Positions 1,994 to 62,911 of a stretch of DNA of 64,000 nt are shown piece by piece; the stretch's first letter is position 1; each line of letters starts with the position of its first letter. Position numbers and translations under genes: made by a program. Where the stretch lies: assembly GCA_050944855.1 (NCBI GenBank), contig JBMNRU010000004.1, positions 22,634 to 86,633 on the forward strand. Reading direction: 5' to 3'. A model generated the notes under the pieces. It had not been told where the DNA came from. It saw only the letters and a program-made list of their open reading frames with translations, and made no database searches. The stretch comes from Lachnospiraceae bacterium. Its GTDB lineage: Bacteria; Bacillota; Clostridia; Lachnospirales; Lachnospiraceae.

Positions 1994-3757
1994 TTACAGA
2001 TACTGACTGTGATACAGATTTGCATAAAAACCATTTTTTTGCAGCAGGCTTTCATGATTTCCCTGCTCTATGATCTTGCCGTCTTTCATAACAAGGATCA
2101 CATCTGCTTCCCGAATAGTGGAAAGACGATGGGCTACCAGAAAGCTGGTTCTGCCCTCCATCATCCGGGCAAAGGCCTTCTGAATCCGCATTTCCGTTCG
2201 CGTATCAATGCTGGACGTGGCTTCATCCAGGATCAGCATAGGCGGCAGACAGAGCATAACTCTGGCAATACACAAAAGCTGCTTTTGTCCCTGACTGATA
2301 TTTCCTCCATCCTCGGTAATCTCTGTGTCATATCCCTTTGGCAGACGCATGATAAAGCTGTGGGCATGGGCGGCCTTTGCAGCTTCTATGACCTCTTTTC
2401 TGGTCGCTTCCGGTTTTCCATAGGCAATATTTTCTAAAACAGACCCTTTCTTCAGCCAGGTTTCCTGCAATACCATCCCGTAGCTTCTTCGAAGAGAGGC
2501 TCTGGTGATATCACGAATATCTGTTCCGGATACGGAGATCCTGCCCTGCTGCACATCATAGAAACGCATCAGCAGATTGATCATCGTTGTTTTTCCGCAG
2601 CCGGTAGGACCAACAATGGCAATTCTCTGTCCCGGTTTCACTGACAGATTAAAATTCTCGATCAGCGGACGGTCCGGTACATAAGAAAAAGATACCTGCT
2701 CTAAGTCCACCGTTCCTGTGGTATTTTCAGGTGTCAGCACCCGGGCATCCGGCACATCCTCTGTCTGAGCCCGCTCATCCAACAGCTGAAATACACGGCC
2801 GGCGCAGGCCAGGGCATTCTGCAGTTCCGTCACAACACCGGAAATTTCATTAAATGGTTTTGTATATTGATTGGCATAACTTAAAAAGCAGGATAACTGC
2901 CCTACCGTAATTCCTCCGGCAACTGCATACAAAGCGCCTACCAGGCCAACGCCCGCATATACCACATTATTGACAAAACGGGTACAGGGATTGGTAAGAC
3001 TGCTGAAAAAGATAGCTTTCAAACTGACTTTTTGAAGCCGTCCATTCATGTCATCAAATGTTTCCAATGCCTTTTTTTCATATCCAAACGCCTGCACCAC
3101 ACGCAGGCCTTCCATCATTTCATTAATAAAACTCGTCTGTTCCCCCCGCACTTCACTCTGGGTTTTAAAGTTATGAAATGTCTTTTTCGCAATAAATCCG
3201 GCCACCACAAAACTAAGAGGCGTGACGCACACAACTACCAATGTGATGCTTACATTTACATAAATCATAAATCCCAGTGTACCGATAATGGTCAGAACTC
3301 CTGTGAAAAACTGGGTGAACCCCATAAGCAAACCGTCCGCAAACTGATCCACATCGGTGATCACGCGGCTTACCAGATCCCCGGAGGGATGTCTGTCCAG
3401 GTAAGAAAGCGGCAGTACCTGAATCCGGGAAATGGCTTCATTTCTCAAATCCCTGGATACACTATACGTGATCTTATTGTTGCAAAGACTCATGATCCAC
3501 TGCGCAAAAAAAGTCAGGGCCACAGATGCCAATATGATTTTGCAAATGGCAAAAAGACCGGCAAAATCCACGTTTCCCTCTCCGATCATATAGTCAATGG
3601 CATTCCCTGTGAGAATCGGCACGTACAGCTGGGTCGCCACGGAAAGCGCCGCACACAGCAAGCTGCAGATCACAAATATTTTATAGGGAGCAATATAACG
3701 AAGCACCCTTGTCAAAGTTGCCTTTTTCTGTTCTCTTTTTTCCTTATCCGCCATCAC
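1994..3757 (-). CDS. ABC exporter, fused permease/ATPase (half of a heterodimeric pair)
   Basis: 587 aa. Six-TM N-terminal domain, Walker A GPTGCGKTT, signature ISQGQKQ, Walker B LILDEATS. Start overlaps the upstream partner by 4 nt. Confidence 0.9.
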   Translation of the reverse strand: MMADKEKREQKKATLTRVLRYIAPYKIFVICSLLCAALSVATQLYVPILTGNAIDYMIGEGNVDFAGLFAICKIILASVALTFFAQWIMSLCNNKITYSVSRDLRNEAISRIQVLPLSYLDRHPSGDLVSRVITDVDQFADGLLMGFTQFFTGVLTIIGTLGFMIYVNVSITLVVVCVTPLSFVVAGFIAKKTFHNFKTQSEVRGEQTSFINEMMEGLRVVQAFGYEKKALETFDDMNGRLQKVSLKAIFFSSLTNPCTRFVNNVVYAGVGLVGALYAVAGGITVGQLSCFLSYANQYTKPFNEISGVVTELQNALACAGRVFQLLDERAQTEDVPDARVLTPENTTGTVDLEQVSFSYVPDRPLIENFNLSVKPGQRIAIVGPTGCGKTTMINLLMRFYDVQQGRISVSGTDIRDITRASLRRSYGMVLQETWLKKGSVLENIAYGKPEATRKEVIEAAKAAHAHSFIMRLPKGYDTEITEDGGNISQGQKQLLCIARVMLCLPPMLILDEATSSIDTRTEMRIQKAFARMMEGRTSFLVAHRLSTIREADVILVMKDGKIIEQGNHESLLQKNGFYANLYHSQYL

Positions 3758-59383: not shown

Positions 59384-61066
59384 TTATGAAAAAATAGGTT
59401 TCAGTGCTTCTGCCAGTTCTTCTTTCTGTGCCTGGGCTTCTGCCAGATCTTTTCCAAGCGTTGTAAAATATGTCTTAATCTTTGGTTCCGTACCGGACGG
59501 ACGAACCACTACCGTTGCACCGCCCTCCAGAGCGTAGATCAATACGTTCGCTGCAGGCAATCCTGTTTCTTCCGGCTTCTTGTAATCCGTAACCTTCGTT
59601 ACTGCATATCCGGCAATTGCAGCAGGGGGATTCTGACGAAGATCCTCCATAATTGCCGTCATCTTATCCATACCGGATAATCCCGGGAACTCAAAGCTGT
59701 CCACCTTATTCAGGTAACGGCCATATTTCGCATAAATCTCTTCCAGACGTTCTTTGATAGAAGAACCGATACTTCTGTAGTATGCTGCCATCTCACAGAT
59801 CAGCATAGAACCAATGATCGCATCCTTATCACGAACATACGGACCGGCCAGATAACCATAGCTTTCCTCGAAGCCAAAGATAAAGCGGTCTACTTCGCCC
59901 TTTGCCTCCAGACCTGCGATCTGATCGCCAATCCATTTGAATCCGGTTAATACGCTGCGAAGCTCTACCCCATAATTGGCTGCCACCGCATCTGCCAGCG
60001 GTGTAGAAACAATAGACTTCACCGCAACTGCATTTTCCGGCATCGTTCCATTCTCAATACGTCCTGCGCAAATATAGTCAAGGAGAAGTACTCCCACTTC
60101 ATTTCCCGATACCAGCTCATAAGAACCATCCGGGCATTTGATAGCGATACCGACACGGTCTGCATCCGGGTCCGTGGCAAGCATCAAGTCTGCGCCGGAC
60201 TTCTCAGCCAGTTCAAGGCCTAACCGCAATGCTTCAAAAATCTCCGGGTTCGGATATGGACAGGTTGGGAAATTGCCATCCGGATACTGCTGTTCCGGCA
60301 CAATGGTAATATCCGTAATACCAATGTCATGAAGCACGCGGGTCACCGGTACCAAACCGGAACCATTCAGCGGGGAATATACCAGCTTAAGTCCGGCTGT
60401 CTTACAAAGACCTGGACGTACACTTCTTGCTTCAATTGCCTCATAAAGTGCTTCTTTACAGTCTTCGCCGACATACTGAATCAAACCGGCTTTCATGCCT
60501 TCTTCAAAATCCATCAGCTTGGCGCCTGTTAAAATATCCGTCTTCTGAATTTCCGCATATACAATGTCCGCAGCTTCGTCTGTCATCTGGCATCCATCCG
60601 GGCCATATGCCTTGTATCCGTTATATTTTGCCGGATTGTGAGAAGCCGTGATCATAATACCGGCGTTTGCTTTATAGTAACGGGCAGCAAAGCTAAGTGC
60701 CGGTACCGGCATAAGTGCATCATAGATATAAACCTTTACGCCATTCGCCGCCAATACCTTTGCTGCCTCTTTTGCAAATATATCACTGTTAATACGGCTG
60801 TCATAGCTGATCGCAACCGACTGGCTTCCGCCCTGTGTTTTCACCCAGTTTGCCAATCCCTGTGTTGCCTGACGAACAACATAAATATTCATACGATTGG
60901 AACCTGCCCCCAAAACACCTCTTAATCCGGCTGTACCAAACTTTAATGCCACCGCAAAACGCTCTTTTATCTCTTCTTCGTTTCCTGCAATCGCTTTAAG
61001 CTCAGCTGTCAATGCTGCATCTTCAAGTTCCGTGTTCATCCAACGCTTATAATCTTCCATATACAT
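59384..61066 (-). CDS. Phosphoglucomutase/phosphomannomutase family protein
   Basis: About 560 aa. Active-site loop TASHNPAKYNGYK, metal loop DPDADR, and sugar loop GFEESYGY. The start among three nearby ATGs is uncertain. Confidence 0.9.
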   Translation of the reverse strand: MYMEDYKRWMNTELEDAALTAELKAIAGNEEEIKERFAVALKFGTAGLRGVLGAGSNRMNIYVVRQATQGLANWVKTQGGSQSVAISYDSRINSDIFAKEAAKVLAANGVKVYIYDALMPVPALSFAARYYKANAGIMITASHNPAKYNGYKAYGPDGCQMTDEAADIVYAEIQKTDILTGAKLMDFEEGMKAGLIQYVGEDCKEALYEAIEARSVRPGLCKTAGLKLVYSPLNGSGLVPVTRVLHDIGITDITIVPEQQYPDGNFPTCPYPNPEIFEALRLGLELAEKSGADLMLATDPDADRVGIAIKCPDGSYELVSGNEVGVLLLDYICAGRIENGTMPENAVAVKSIVSTPLADAVAANYGVELRSVLTGFKWIGDQIAGLEAKGEVDRFIFGFEESYGYLAGPYVRDKDAIIGSMLICEMAAYYRSIGSSIKERLEEIYAKYGRYLNKVDSFEFPGLSGMDKMTAIMEDLRQNPPAAIAGYAVTKVTDYKKPEETGLPAANVLIYALEGGATVVVRPSGTEPKIKTYFTTLGKDLAEAQAQKEELAEALKPIFS

Positions 61067-61597
61067 GTTAAGCACCATCCTTATTTTTAGGCTTAATTAA
61101 AATGAAACCCTTATAAAATATAGTATAATTTCTACCACTATCCTTTGTCAATATCATCCGTTTATCTGCTCTTCTTTCACCGTTATCGGATATCTGCGAT
61201 ACAAAATATACCCCGCCGCGGCCGTCAGCACTTCCGCAATGGGTCTTCTGGTTGAAGAGTTTTTATATTCTCATAGATTTTTTCAAATTTTTTAACATCA
61301 CCCATACCTGCTCCCCATTATGAAAACTGTATAAACTTGAAATATATTATAACCTAAATAGCCTAAAACGTTAATAGAGCATATGAGATTCCAAGCAGCG
61401 AAACGAATCTCAGGAAGATATACGATTCCAAAAGCCTTGCTAATCTTAAAGCCGAGATTGAGAAATAGATACTTGTAAGGCCTGTTAAAAAAGTTGGAAC
61501 TGTGAGCCCATGCTCACGGCTCCATTACTATATCTTGTGTTTGTGGGGGCTCTATCGGCTCCAAAGCGTTAGGATATTCAGACAAATCGCGACAAAC

Positions 61598-61642
61598 AAG
61601 ACCCCCGAAAACACTGATATTTTCGGGGGTCTTGGTATTTTT
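61598..61642 (+). terminator. Strong terminator-like hairpin in the non-coding gap
   Basis: AAGACCCCCGAAAA-cactga-TTTTCGGGGGTCTT is a 14-bp perfect stem followed by GGTATTTTT. The T-run is better on the plus strand. No plus-strand gene precedes it. Confidence 0.55.
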
Positions 61643-61743
61643 GCAGTCTGATTATCTCTTGCAAAGTTCCAAACCTTTATTTCCCGGCATTTTCAAGGTA
61701 ATTGTTAGTTACCTGTCACTTACTCATAAACATTCATACTCAC

Positions 61744-62220
61744 TCATTTTATTTTATTCAGCTCATTCAAAATATGATTTATATCCGTCAAAACAATCCT
61801 AACCCCTCTTTTATTTAATCTAACCACCTTTCGCACGATACCATTTATTTCTGCTGATAATTTATCATTTATAGTAACCGGAACTGTATTGTTTTCAATC
61901 ATATACTGACAATCAATGTACTCTTCAGTCACCGGACAAAGATTCTGAATCAGAAAAGCTCTGTATTTTCCATTTACATATCCGAACCGTAGGCCATCAT
62001 ACTCCCTGTATCTCATTTTCTTTTTATCATACAACGCTTTATACTTTTCCGTTTTAGATGATATAGGAACCATCCAAAAATATCCGTCCATTTCAAAACA
62101 ATAGAAACAGGGTCTCCCATGCACTCCTGCTTCATCATCATCTTTATTCCCCATTAATCCACAATTAGGAAATCGTTTATAATATTCGTCCTTAATAAAA
62201 TAAAAATTACCTGTATTCAA
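61744..62220 (-). CDS. Type III toxin-antitoxin system toxin, ToxN/AbiQ/CptN family (endoribonuclease)
   Basis: NFYFIKDEYYKRF, RPCFYCFEMDGYFWMVPISSKTEKY and AFLIQNLCPVTEEYI follow the ToxN/AbiQ pattern (FY.I...Y...L, ...YL.PL.S.K, IN...MIP). The likely start is TTG 62220, 4 nt after AGGAGA; the track ATG 62238 lies in the terminator T-run. Confidence 0.8.
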   Translation of the reverse strand: MNTGNFYFIKDEYYKRFPNCGLMGNKDDDEAGVHGRPCFYCFEMDGYFWMVPISSKTEKYKALYDKKKMRYREYDGLRFGYVNGKYRAFLIQNLCPVTEEYIDCQYMIENNTVPVTINDKLSAEINGIVRKVVRLNKRGVRIVLTDINHILNELNKIK

Positions 62221-62235
62221 ATTGTCTCCTATGTA

Positions 62236-62264
62236 CAAAAGTGCCCCGCTAAACAGCGGAGCAC
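62236..62264 (-). terminator. Intrinsic terminator between the repeat RNA and the toxin gene
   Basis: On the minus strand, GTGCTCCGCT-gttt-AGCGGGGCAC is followed by TTTTGT, immediately 5' of the toxin RBS. Confidence 0.7.
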
Positions 62265-62358
62265 AAATATTTGTATCCCAGCCATTTATTAGTCGCTCGC
62301 TGGGTAGCGAAAAATATTTGTATCTGCACCTTTTCTATAAATGCCGATATGCAGTTCC
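62265..62358 (-). ncRNA. Candidate type III antitoxin RNA: two 47-nt units
   Basis: Unit 1 (62358-62312) is ggaacTGCAtatcggcatttatagaaaaggTGCAGATACAAATATTT. Unit 2 (62311-62265) is ttcgctaCCCAGCgagcgactaataaatgGCTGGGATACAAATATTT. They share an exact 13-nt 3' block and have positionally equivalent stems. Confidence 0.55.
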
Positions 62359-62398
62359 GGCAGAATAATAAGAGATTCATCTGAACTTCTTAATTTAT

Positions 62399-62404
62399 AT
62401 TATA
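62399..62404 (-). promoter_or_regulatory. Possible -10 box for the repeat RNA/toxin transcript
   Basis: TATAAT on the minus strand, about 40 nt upstream of unit 1. There is no good -35 (GTAGAT at 17 nt). Read-through from rpsI is an alternative. Confidence 0.35.
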
Positions 62405-62446
62405 CTCATTTTCAGATAAATATCTACTGGCATTTTATACAAAAGG

Positions 62447-62482
62447 TTGCAAAATCCCCAAAACATACAGGTTTTGGGGATT
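62447..62482 (-). terminator. Intrinsic terminator after rpsI
   Basis: On the minus strand, AATCCCCAAAAC-ctgtat-GTTTTGGGGATT is a 12-bp perfect stem followed by TTTGC. Confidence 0.75.
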
Positions 62483-62518
62483 AAAATGCATCGTTGATAT
62501 TTCTGTATTCTCTTTGAA

Positions 62519-62911
62519 TTATCGCTTGCTGAACTGCGGAGCACGACGAGCTGCTTTGAGACCATATTTCTTACGTTCTTTCATACGTGGATCACGTGTT
62601 AAGTATCCTGCTGCTTTTAATGTCGGTCTGTATTCGCCGTCTGCCTGAAGCAGTGCTCTTGCGATACCATGTCTGACAGCACCAGCCTGGCCTGTATATC
62701 CGCCGCCATGTACGTTTACTAATACATCAAATTTATCCAGTGTATCAGTTGCAACCAGTGGCTGACGAACGATTACTTTCAATGTATCCAATCCAAAATA
62801 ATCATCAATGTCTCTTTTATTAATTGTAATTTTACCTGTGCCGGGTACTAAATATACTCTTGCGATTGATTTTTTTCTTCTTCCTGTTCCGTAGAATTTT
62901 GCACTAGCCAA
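62519..62911 (-). CDS. rpsI: 30S ribosomal protein S9
   Basis: 130 aa. It starts with [12 protein letters not shown] and ends RRAPQFSKR. Confidence 0.98.

Follow-up and report, generated by a model that had tools for sequence, protein, structure and literature searches.

Type III toxin-antitoxin (TA) systems combine a protein toxin with an RNA antitoxin, and a candidate of this kind is contained in a 64,000-nucleotide (nt) stretch of a Lachnospiraceae contig, which is referred to here as the window. The cassette was examined on the minus strand, just 3' of rpsI, and comprises a promoter-like site, an RNA region with two pseudoknot units, a terminator hairpin and the toxin gene cptN. We read it as a chromosomal type III TA cassette of the CptIN family, with a probability of close to 90%.

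The closest described system is CptIN of Eubacterium rectale (Rao et al. 2015, PMC4627078; PDB 4RMO). Its toxin, CptN, matures the repeat RNA of its own locus, with a 2',3'-cyclic phosphate left behind, and assembles with it into a heterotetramer; a single repeat suffices for neutralisation, and plasmids are stabilised by the locus. Cleavage occurs at ..UUGA^AAGU.., with the cyclic phosphate left on A45 of CptI, whose sequence is given by a primer as AAGUUUACCACUGACCGAUAUGUGGUAUAUAAAUGGUCGGGUUGA. The crystal-structure paper places a Ser-Ser pair and Tyr104 in the active site, while Asp81 and Ser85 are said to read the scissile adenine. For the cptIN family as a whole, the survey by Blower et al. 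2012 (PMC3401426) describes loci that were detected through tandem repeats and found on chromosomes only. More remote are ToxIN (from Pectobacterium, Bacillus and Escherichia coli) and AbiQ/antiQ, which share the operon logic and the toxin superfold and likewise process their own repeat RNA. However, their toxins are only 12–14% identical to that of the window, their repeats, at 31–36 nt, are shorter and present in greater number, the complex is a heterohexamer, and their proven abortive-infection activity is so far without counterpart in CptIN. The repeats of toxI and cptI are described as nearly identical and non-identical ones are reported only for tenpIN, for which it was asked whether both repeats are functional (Sci Rep 2025, PMC12283969).

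The window locus resembles CptIN of E. rectale in toxin family and predicted fold, in the Ser-Ser motif and the Tyr104 equivalent, and in antitoxin units of 45–47 nt that are laid out as H-type pseudoknots with a very short L1 and an A-rich L2 loop (UAAAUGG). In both, two units are followed by the terminator and then by the toxin gene, and both are chromosomal loci of Lachnospiraceae gut bacteria. In contrast, the proteins share only about 30% identity, the window junction reads CAAAU and not GAAAG, and the first unit of the window is without a 5' junction motif; further, the two units are about 55% identical and have different stem sequences, unlike the nearly identical published cptI repeats. 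With the loci of the 2012 survey, the window locus shares a toxin near the family mean length, a chromosomal location and a Firmicute host, but its diverged units would be missed by the tandem-repeat approach used there. It comes from a gut Lachnospiraceae lineage that is uncultured or little studied, adds a well-supported locus to the known CptIN family, and leaves the type III working picture unchanged. Its distinctive trait is a pair of antitoxin units with a common fold and junction but little common sequence; a second is a clear insertion signature at the 3' end of rpsI.

The toxin gene and the order of parts

The preliminary description of this DNA had recognised a ToxN/AbiQ/CptN-type pattern in the open reading frame (ORF) listed at 61744-62238 (-), from which it quoted peptides, and profile and structure searches bear this out. 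The NCBIfam equivalog NF047359.1 ("type III toxin-antitoxin system CptIN family toxin"; cut-off 90 bits) matches the toxin over profile positions 1–150 of 150 (169 bits, E 5.8e-50). CptN of E. rectale (4RMO) is the sole significant solved relative by sequence (E 2.4e-20). An AlphaFold model, built with an alignment of 25 homologues as input, reached a predicted local distance difference test score (pLDDT) of 91 and a predicted template modelling score (pTM) of 0.87; when this model was submitted to Foldseek, 4RMO_A was the top PDB match (TM 0.80/0.81, E 3.7e-10), followed in order by AbiQ, E. coli ToxN, and then MazF/CcdB toxins. Accordingly, the toxin is predicted to adopt the CptN/ToxN (Kid-like) fold.

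The residues R36, P37, S54, S55, K59, Y60, D75, Q92, N93 and Y106 are invariant in 25 homologues (41–82% identity). Among them, S54, S55, R36 and Y106 align with S51, S52, R30 and Y104 of E. rectale CptN, although the text of PMC4627078 leaves the residues of the Ser-Ser-Arg triad unnumbered. The assignment also meets with contrary results: in the alignment with 4RMO, the equivalents of Asp81 and Ser85 are Gly and Arg, and scans of the toxin with Pfam and with PADLOC returned no match. Since the Ser-Ser pair and the Tyr are kept where Asp81 and Ser85 are replaced, the catalytic core appears to be retained while substrate reading may differ, and the cleavage specificity of the window toxin may thus not be that of E. 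rectale CptN. The Pfam and PADLOC libraries, in turn, seem to lack a model that reaches CptN, because the NCBIfam match, the PDB sequence search and the fold search agree.

The start codon is likely TTG 62220, which had been proposed before. The profile match starts at residue 10 of the longer ORF reading; the TTG (62220-62218) lies 4 nt beyond AGGAGA, and neither TTG nor AGGAG varies among 14 related loci. Moreover, gene callers used the same TTG for an identical 158-amino-acid (aa) product in two other assemblies, both with the phosphohexomutase gene downstream.

Promoter-like site, RNA region, terminator hairpin, Shine-Dalgarno sequence and toxin gene follow each other in the order that had been put forward as a type III layout, and the same order recurs upstream of essentially every toxin relative in the related loci inspected (Table 1). 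The placement in the CptIN branch likewise holds, given the NF047359.1 match and an antitoxin region whose 47-nt period and two units fall inside the 40–48 nt and 1.9–3.4 copies given in PMC3401426.

The TATAAT box was found at the position indicated earlier (62404-62399), with TAGATA 16 nt upstream. This -10 box and its surrounding sequence are kept in about 30 loci, and the site would presumably act as a sigma-70-like promoter. It is followed by a leader hairpin that is part of the consensus fold of 14 loci, where one of its pairs is altered on both sides; in distant relatives, hairpins of unrelated sequence occupy the same place. The GC-rich hairpin with T-run previously noted at 62264-62237 proved to be a 10-bp stem (62264-62241; 7 G-C pairs) followed by TTTTGT. 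In the 14 loci its sequence conservation is only 70%, yet the stem is kept by compensatory changes (pair 141/156, CG<->UA in 5 sequences; pair 144/153, GC<->AU in 5). By analogy with ToxIN, this terminator is presumably leaky.

Table 1. Features of the cptIN cassette and its borders, with window positions
Feature	Position	Strand	Basis or remark
Left flanking direct repeat GCAAGCGATAAT	62518..62529	-	last rpsI codons and stop codon
Terminator-like hairpin AATCCCCAAAAC...GTTTTGGGGATT, then TTTT	62451..62482	-	left end of conserved block; inverted repeat I10 (12 nt, 100% complementary)
Sigma-70-like promoter (putative): TAGATA, 16-nt spacer, TATAAT	62399..62426	-	consensus scan, 10/12
5' leader hairpin of antitoxin transcript	62369..62392	-	minimum-free-energy fold
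Antitoxin unit A, H-type pseudoknot	62324..62362	-	S1 UGCCG (62362-62358) with CGGCA (62346-62342); S2 CUGCAU (62354-62349) with GUGCAG (62329-62324); A-rich L2 UUUAUAGAAAAG
Junction 1, GATACAAATATTT	62312..62324	-	exact 13-nt repeat; predicted cut CA^AAU between 62319 and 62318
Antitoxin unit B, H-type pseudoknot	62277..62310	-	S1 UCGCU (62310-62306) with AGCGA (62297-62293); S2 CCCAGC (62304-62299) with GCUGGG (62282-62277); L2 CUAAUAAAUG
Junction 2, GATACAAATATTT	62265..62277	-	exact 13-nt repeat; predicted cut between 62272 and 62271
Intrinsic terminator, antitoxin/toxin boundary	62235..62264	-	terminator scan; 10-bp stem, then UUUUGU
Shine-Dalgarno sequence AGGAGA	62225..62230	-	AGGAG conserved in 14 loci
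cptN toxin gene	61744..62220	-	158 aa, TTG start, predicted endoribonuclease
Conserved 3' untranslated region (UTR) of cassette	61663..61743	-	DNA similarity to related loci ends at about 61650
Right flanking direct repeat GCAAGAGATAAT	61651..61662	-	right end of inserted block
Bidirectional terminator hairpin, 15 bp	61597..61634	.	terminator scan and inverted-repeat search

In the 3' UTR of cptN, which is conserved among loci, the core reads GGGTAAGTGACAGGTAACTAACAAA; conserved secondary structure was looked for in it across these loci and none was found. An imperfect 16-nt repeat (AAAATGCC..., D3), located upstream of the promoter and in the 3' UTR, was set aside as probably due to chance.

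Two antitoxin units with a common fold and unlike sequences

Two 47-nt direct units had been described upstream of the terminator. Their period and their shared ending stand, since GATACAAATATTT is present twice exactly, 47 nt apart; the notion of a near-identical sequence repeat does not. In register, the units agree at 25/47 positions overall and at 12/34 outside the 13-nt junction, with 3/5 S1 pairs and 4/6 S2 pairs differing on both sides, and Tandem Repeats Finder detected no array in the antitoxin RNA region. While period and number thus fit the pattern expected of a cptI array (40–48 nt, about 2–3 copies), sequence identity does not follow; what units A and B repeat is their structure and not their sequence. 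An Rfam search of 61000-62600 gave no family, the best hits being sub-threshold terminator look-alikes.

Both units are laid out like the crystallised E. rectale CptI, and unit B can be aligned with it, including the UAAAUGG part of the A-rich L2 loop that the two have in common. Shuffling yields a correctly placed pseudoknot, with stems of 5 bp and 6 bp up to the start of the junction, in only 1.1% of cases for unit A and 0.4% for unit B, which speaks against a chance origin.

The pseudoknot fold of both units is supported by covariation in a collection made up of 34 species-representative genome loci, 80 metagenome loci and 51 loci on IMG/VR viral contigs (individual loci are cited by L numbers). 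Nearly all of them contain a leader hairpin, one to three pseudoknot units (mostly two), a terminator hairpin, a Shine-Dalgarno sequence and the toxin gene, and each unit ends in (U)UCAAAU(G/A)UUU. Units were located with a finder requiring 4-bp and 5-bp stems beside the junction motif; its background is about 1 per 230 nt of the window, and it served to locate units, not as evidence. When all units were put into one MAFFT alignment, the S1 helix of the A-type ones fell out of register; these were therefore handled separately from the other units. For 61 distinct canonical units together with E. rectale CptI, the two-helix pseudoknot is paired in 93.9% of cells and 10 of 11 pairs are changed on both sides; 0 of 500 shuffles match the observed score, and sliding the partner by 1–3 columns lowers pairing to 26–40%. 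For the 20 A-type units, pairing extends to 100% of cells, against 26–52% in the slid controls, and both sides have changed in 6 of 12 pairs.

Conservation points in the same direction. Among 14 close loci, mean pairwise identity is 93% for unit A and 95% for unit B but only 84% for the leader hairpin and 70% for the terminator, so that both units are constrained in sequence, as expected for RNA that is read by a protein; RplM is only 77–89% identical among these species. Both units thus look functional. The A/B pair is retained down to 47% toxin identity (L065, L066, L068, L071, L076), and A-type units are 61–83% alike, closer to each other than to the B unit of their own locus.

The stem-requiring finder inflates the percentage of paired cells, though not the diversity of pair types.

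Two points tell against equal standing of the two units. A covariance model of the 61 canonical units scores unit B at 69 bits, with unit B in the seed, but leaves unit A undetected, even when isolated and with filters off; the case for unit A is consequently made by the covariation and conservation of A-type units themselves and not by any likeness to unit B. In the window clade, moreover, the 5' side of unit A carries CUUAUUAUUCU in place of CAAAU, so that unit A probably stays joined to the leader hairpin. Its antitoxin role is less certain than that of unit B.

These same points could be explained if only unit B were the antitoxin and unit A a decayed repeat that now serves as a structured leader, for stability or folding, and neither binds nor inhibits CptN; unit A might then go unprocessed at its 5' side, and a single repeat does suffice for CptI of E. 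rectale (PMC4627078). We regard this as an unlikely account. A-type units retain both pseudoknot stems with compensatory changes as well as an A-rich L2 like that of canonical units, and it is the sequence of unit A, not its structure alone, that is kept while the adjacent leader hairpin drifts. In addition, units A and B end in the same 13-nt junction, and in L065, L066, L068 and L076, i.e., in loci with A/B pairs at toxin identities reaching down to 47%, unit A is flanked by CAAAU on both sides.

Non-identical units are common in the CptIN branch of the window. In the 82 distinct loci that have two units in succession, the identity of one unit to the other is 100% in 9, 90–99% in 2, 80–89% in 21, 70–79% in 16, 60–69% in 8 and below 60% in 26, the last class being over-represented since the window toxin was the seed of the sample; only 11 of the 82 reach 90% or more. 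The tandem-repeat discovery described in PMC3401426 implies a bias against loci with diverged units such as those of the window. Such type III antitoxins are missed by repeat-based searches, but can be recovered by a toxin profile combined with the pseudoknot and junction pattern.

The nearest parallel is offered by the non-identical repeats of tenpIN (PMC12283969), where two unlike units, each capable of forming a pseudoknot, are also missed by standard repeat finders. There, however, the toxin family is TenpN, and unit variation amounts to at most 35%, compared to about 45% in the window. While the function of both units was left open for tenpIN, the window units are both under purifying selection with compensatory changes. 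This bears on the question raised in 2025 and indicates that the two units of an antitoxin can drift apart to about 55% identity while selection still acts on both and changes in the stems are compensated.

A tentative extension, to which we assign odds well short of even, is that the antitoxin consists of two distinct pseudoknot RNAs, A and B, that have long been kept different for different jobs. If so, an asymmetric CptN2:A:B ring might be formed; alternatively, unit A, joined to the leader and uncut at its 5' side, could be a long-lived anchor and unit B a labile sensor setting the trigger threshold. CptIN antitoxins would in that case normally have non-identical units, and the identical repeats of the textbook would be an artefact of repeat-based discovery.

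In one relative, L032 (~2900-3410), unit B is gone, apparently through recombination between the two 13-nt junctions, and the toxin gene is internally deleted. This double loss is as expected if losing an antitoxin unit selects for toxin inactivation.

Working model and possible relation to phage defence

The model proposed for the window locus takes its RNA processing, cleavage positions, stoichiometry, toxicity and neutralisation from homology with CptIN of E. rectale. A single promoter (-10 box at 62404-62399) would give rise to a transcript with the leader hairpin and then pseudoknot units A and B, each ending in GAUACAAAUAUUU. Most transcripts would end at the hairpin terminator and a minority would read into cptN, whose translation would be further limited by the TTG start; terminator and start codon together would thereby keep the RNA in excess over the toxin. 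The CptN endoribonuclease would cut its own precursor in the junctions and remain bound to the pseudoknot products in a closed, inactive RNA-protein ring, composed, by analogy with E. rectale, of two proteins and two RNAs. If the locus ceases to be transcribed or its RNA is broken down, the toxin, as the more stable partner, would be released, cut cellular RNA and cause growth arrest, with locus loss, stress or perhaps phage infection as possible triggers.

Cleavage in both junctions is predicted at CA^AAU, because the junctions were aligned motif to motif with E. rectale CptI; for junction 1, this position should be accurate to within about 1 nt. In all 61 units, the C of the junction is followed by two invariant A residues. 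The predicted cuts would free a 47-nt unit B (62318-62272).

The preliminary description had labelled the locus a TA/abortive-infection module. Its type III TA part stands, whereas abortive infection is not an established property of the CptIN family: tested cptIN loci gave E. coli no protection from coliphages (PMC3401426, PMC4627078), and no CptIN is so far known to abort phage infection. This also counts against a defensive function of the window locus, although coliphage assays say little about CptIN. Restriction-modification genes beside the cassette in related genomes, and relatives on predicted viral contigs and plasmids, are a hint at phage defence, yet a suggestive one only, and such a role for the window cassette can at most be surmised.

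As for the distribution of the toxin family, CptN relatives with 27–40% identity occur on 14 plasmids in PLSDB (H1-H14; Clostridium perfringens, Megamonas and others), where each bears the annotation hypothetical protein. A further set, at 33–55% identity, is encoded on 51 predicted viral contigs of IMG/VR (L115-L165). A search of cultured phage genomes for relatives found none.

Insertion between rpsI and its probable terminator

The cassette has rplM and rpsI upstream and a phosphohexomutase gene downstream. The conserved block begins directly after the rpsI stop codon and ends in GCAAGAGATAAT, an 11/12 copy of the rpsI end GCAAGCGATAAT; with one repeat copy, the inserted block (62517-61651) comprises 867 bp. 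Six related genomes show the corresponding repeat, 12–16 nt long and made from their own rpsI end (among them L001 12/12, L003 14/14, L004 12/13, L006 12/13, L008 16/16). Shuffles reach the repeat score in 0–1 of 2000 cases for L001, L003 and L008 but in 75 of 2000 for the window alone, whose repeat is convincing only in company of the related genomes. In each of these, a different terminator follows directly after the right repeat copy. Flanking repeats and genome-specific terminators together place the cassette after the rpsI stop codon and ahead of the native terminator, which in the window is probably the hairpin at 61597-61634, displaced by the cassette. The terminator-like hairpin at 62482-62451 was also considered as the rpsI terminator and dropped, since it belongs to the conserved cassette block and is present in related loci including L012, where rpsI is missing upstream.

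Comparison of the rpsI-pgm junction with related genomes, as suggested earlier, gave a consistent picture: for most genome loci, DNA similarity extends from rplM across the cassette and breaks off at about 61650, where the repeat of the rpsI end marks the block edge as it does on the other side, and none has the phosphohexomutase gene downstream. The accessory insertion proposed for this interval is hence upheld by flanking repeats and third-position identity (see below), but its extent is about 870 bp (62517-61651) and not the whole ~1.4 kb. The remainder contains the native terminator and the remnant of a zeta-toxin-type module. The latter is a 26-codon ORF at 61234-61305 (-), MGDVKKFEKIYENIKTLQPEDPLRKC, with its own promoter-like site, which shows a 75% match over its first 24 residues to a 59-aa gene of L016; there, this gene precedes a Zeta_toxin-family gene (PF06414) between rpsI and cptIN. 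Based on this likeness, the window holds the remnant of a second TA-like module beside cptIN.

Highly expressed ribosomal genes are expected to be, if anything, more constrained than other genes. Third-codon-position identity between the window and 11 loci, however, averages 67% for cptN and only 49% for rplM and 52% for rpsI, so that the cassette appears younger than its flanks and looks to have spread horizontally. It is found directly after rpsI in at least 17 species-level genomes, and CptN is conserved like the ribosomal proteins (80–92% vs 77–89%), which would suit a domesticated RNase tied to the rplM-rpsI operon and acting in housekeeping RNA metabolism, not a selfish or defence module. 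We consider this scarcely plausible in view of the third-position values, which argue for recent horizontal spread and not for old vertical descent, the direct repeats of the rpsI end that mark the insertion, the presence of the same cassette beside a type I restriction subunit and a Mob fragment (L012) or DNA methylases (L006), and the frequency of decayed copies.

Decay in relatives is seen as truncated toxins in L027, L031, L033 and L034 and as deletions in L032, which lacks unit B and part of its toxin gene. Taken together with the reduction of the adjacent zeta-type module to a 24-codon remnant, this raises the thought that the window cassette itself is an inactive relic, with a dead toxin or a mismatched RNA. 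That is very improbable, given that the ORF covers the whole profile and retains every family-invariant residue, that the identical toxin protein occurs in two other samples, and that promoter, both units, terminator, Shine-Dalgarno sequence and start codon are intact and conserved.

No recombinase or other mobility gene is encoded in the 867-bp block. That a TA cassette of about 870 bp without its own mobility gene recurs between the rpsI stop codon and the terminator points to a defined insertion hotspot adjoining a highly expressed operon, and the region downstream of rpsI behaves like a small hotspot for defence and mobile genes.

Various neighbours accompany the cassette in individual relatives. 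In L012 (16-2331, 4424-4852), it lies with a scrap of the rpsI end beside a type I restriction R subunit and a Mob_Pre fragment; in L006 (3941-6402), two DNA methylases, of the D12 and N6_N4 classes, follow it; and in L009 (4375-4983), a serine resolvase is found next to it. Group II introns fall into this neighbourhood as well: in L009 (2718-2794) and L014 (2725-2790), a group II intron 3' end (Rfam RF00029) abuts the cassette exactly at TTGTATAAAATGCC. This junction corresponds to window position ~62445, just past the left hairpin of the cassette, which fits the preference of some introns for target sites downstream of terminator hairpins.

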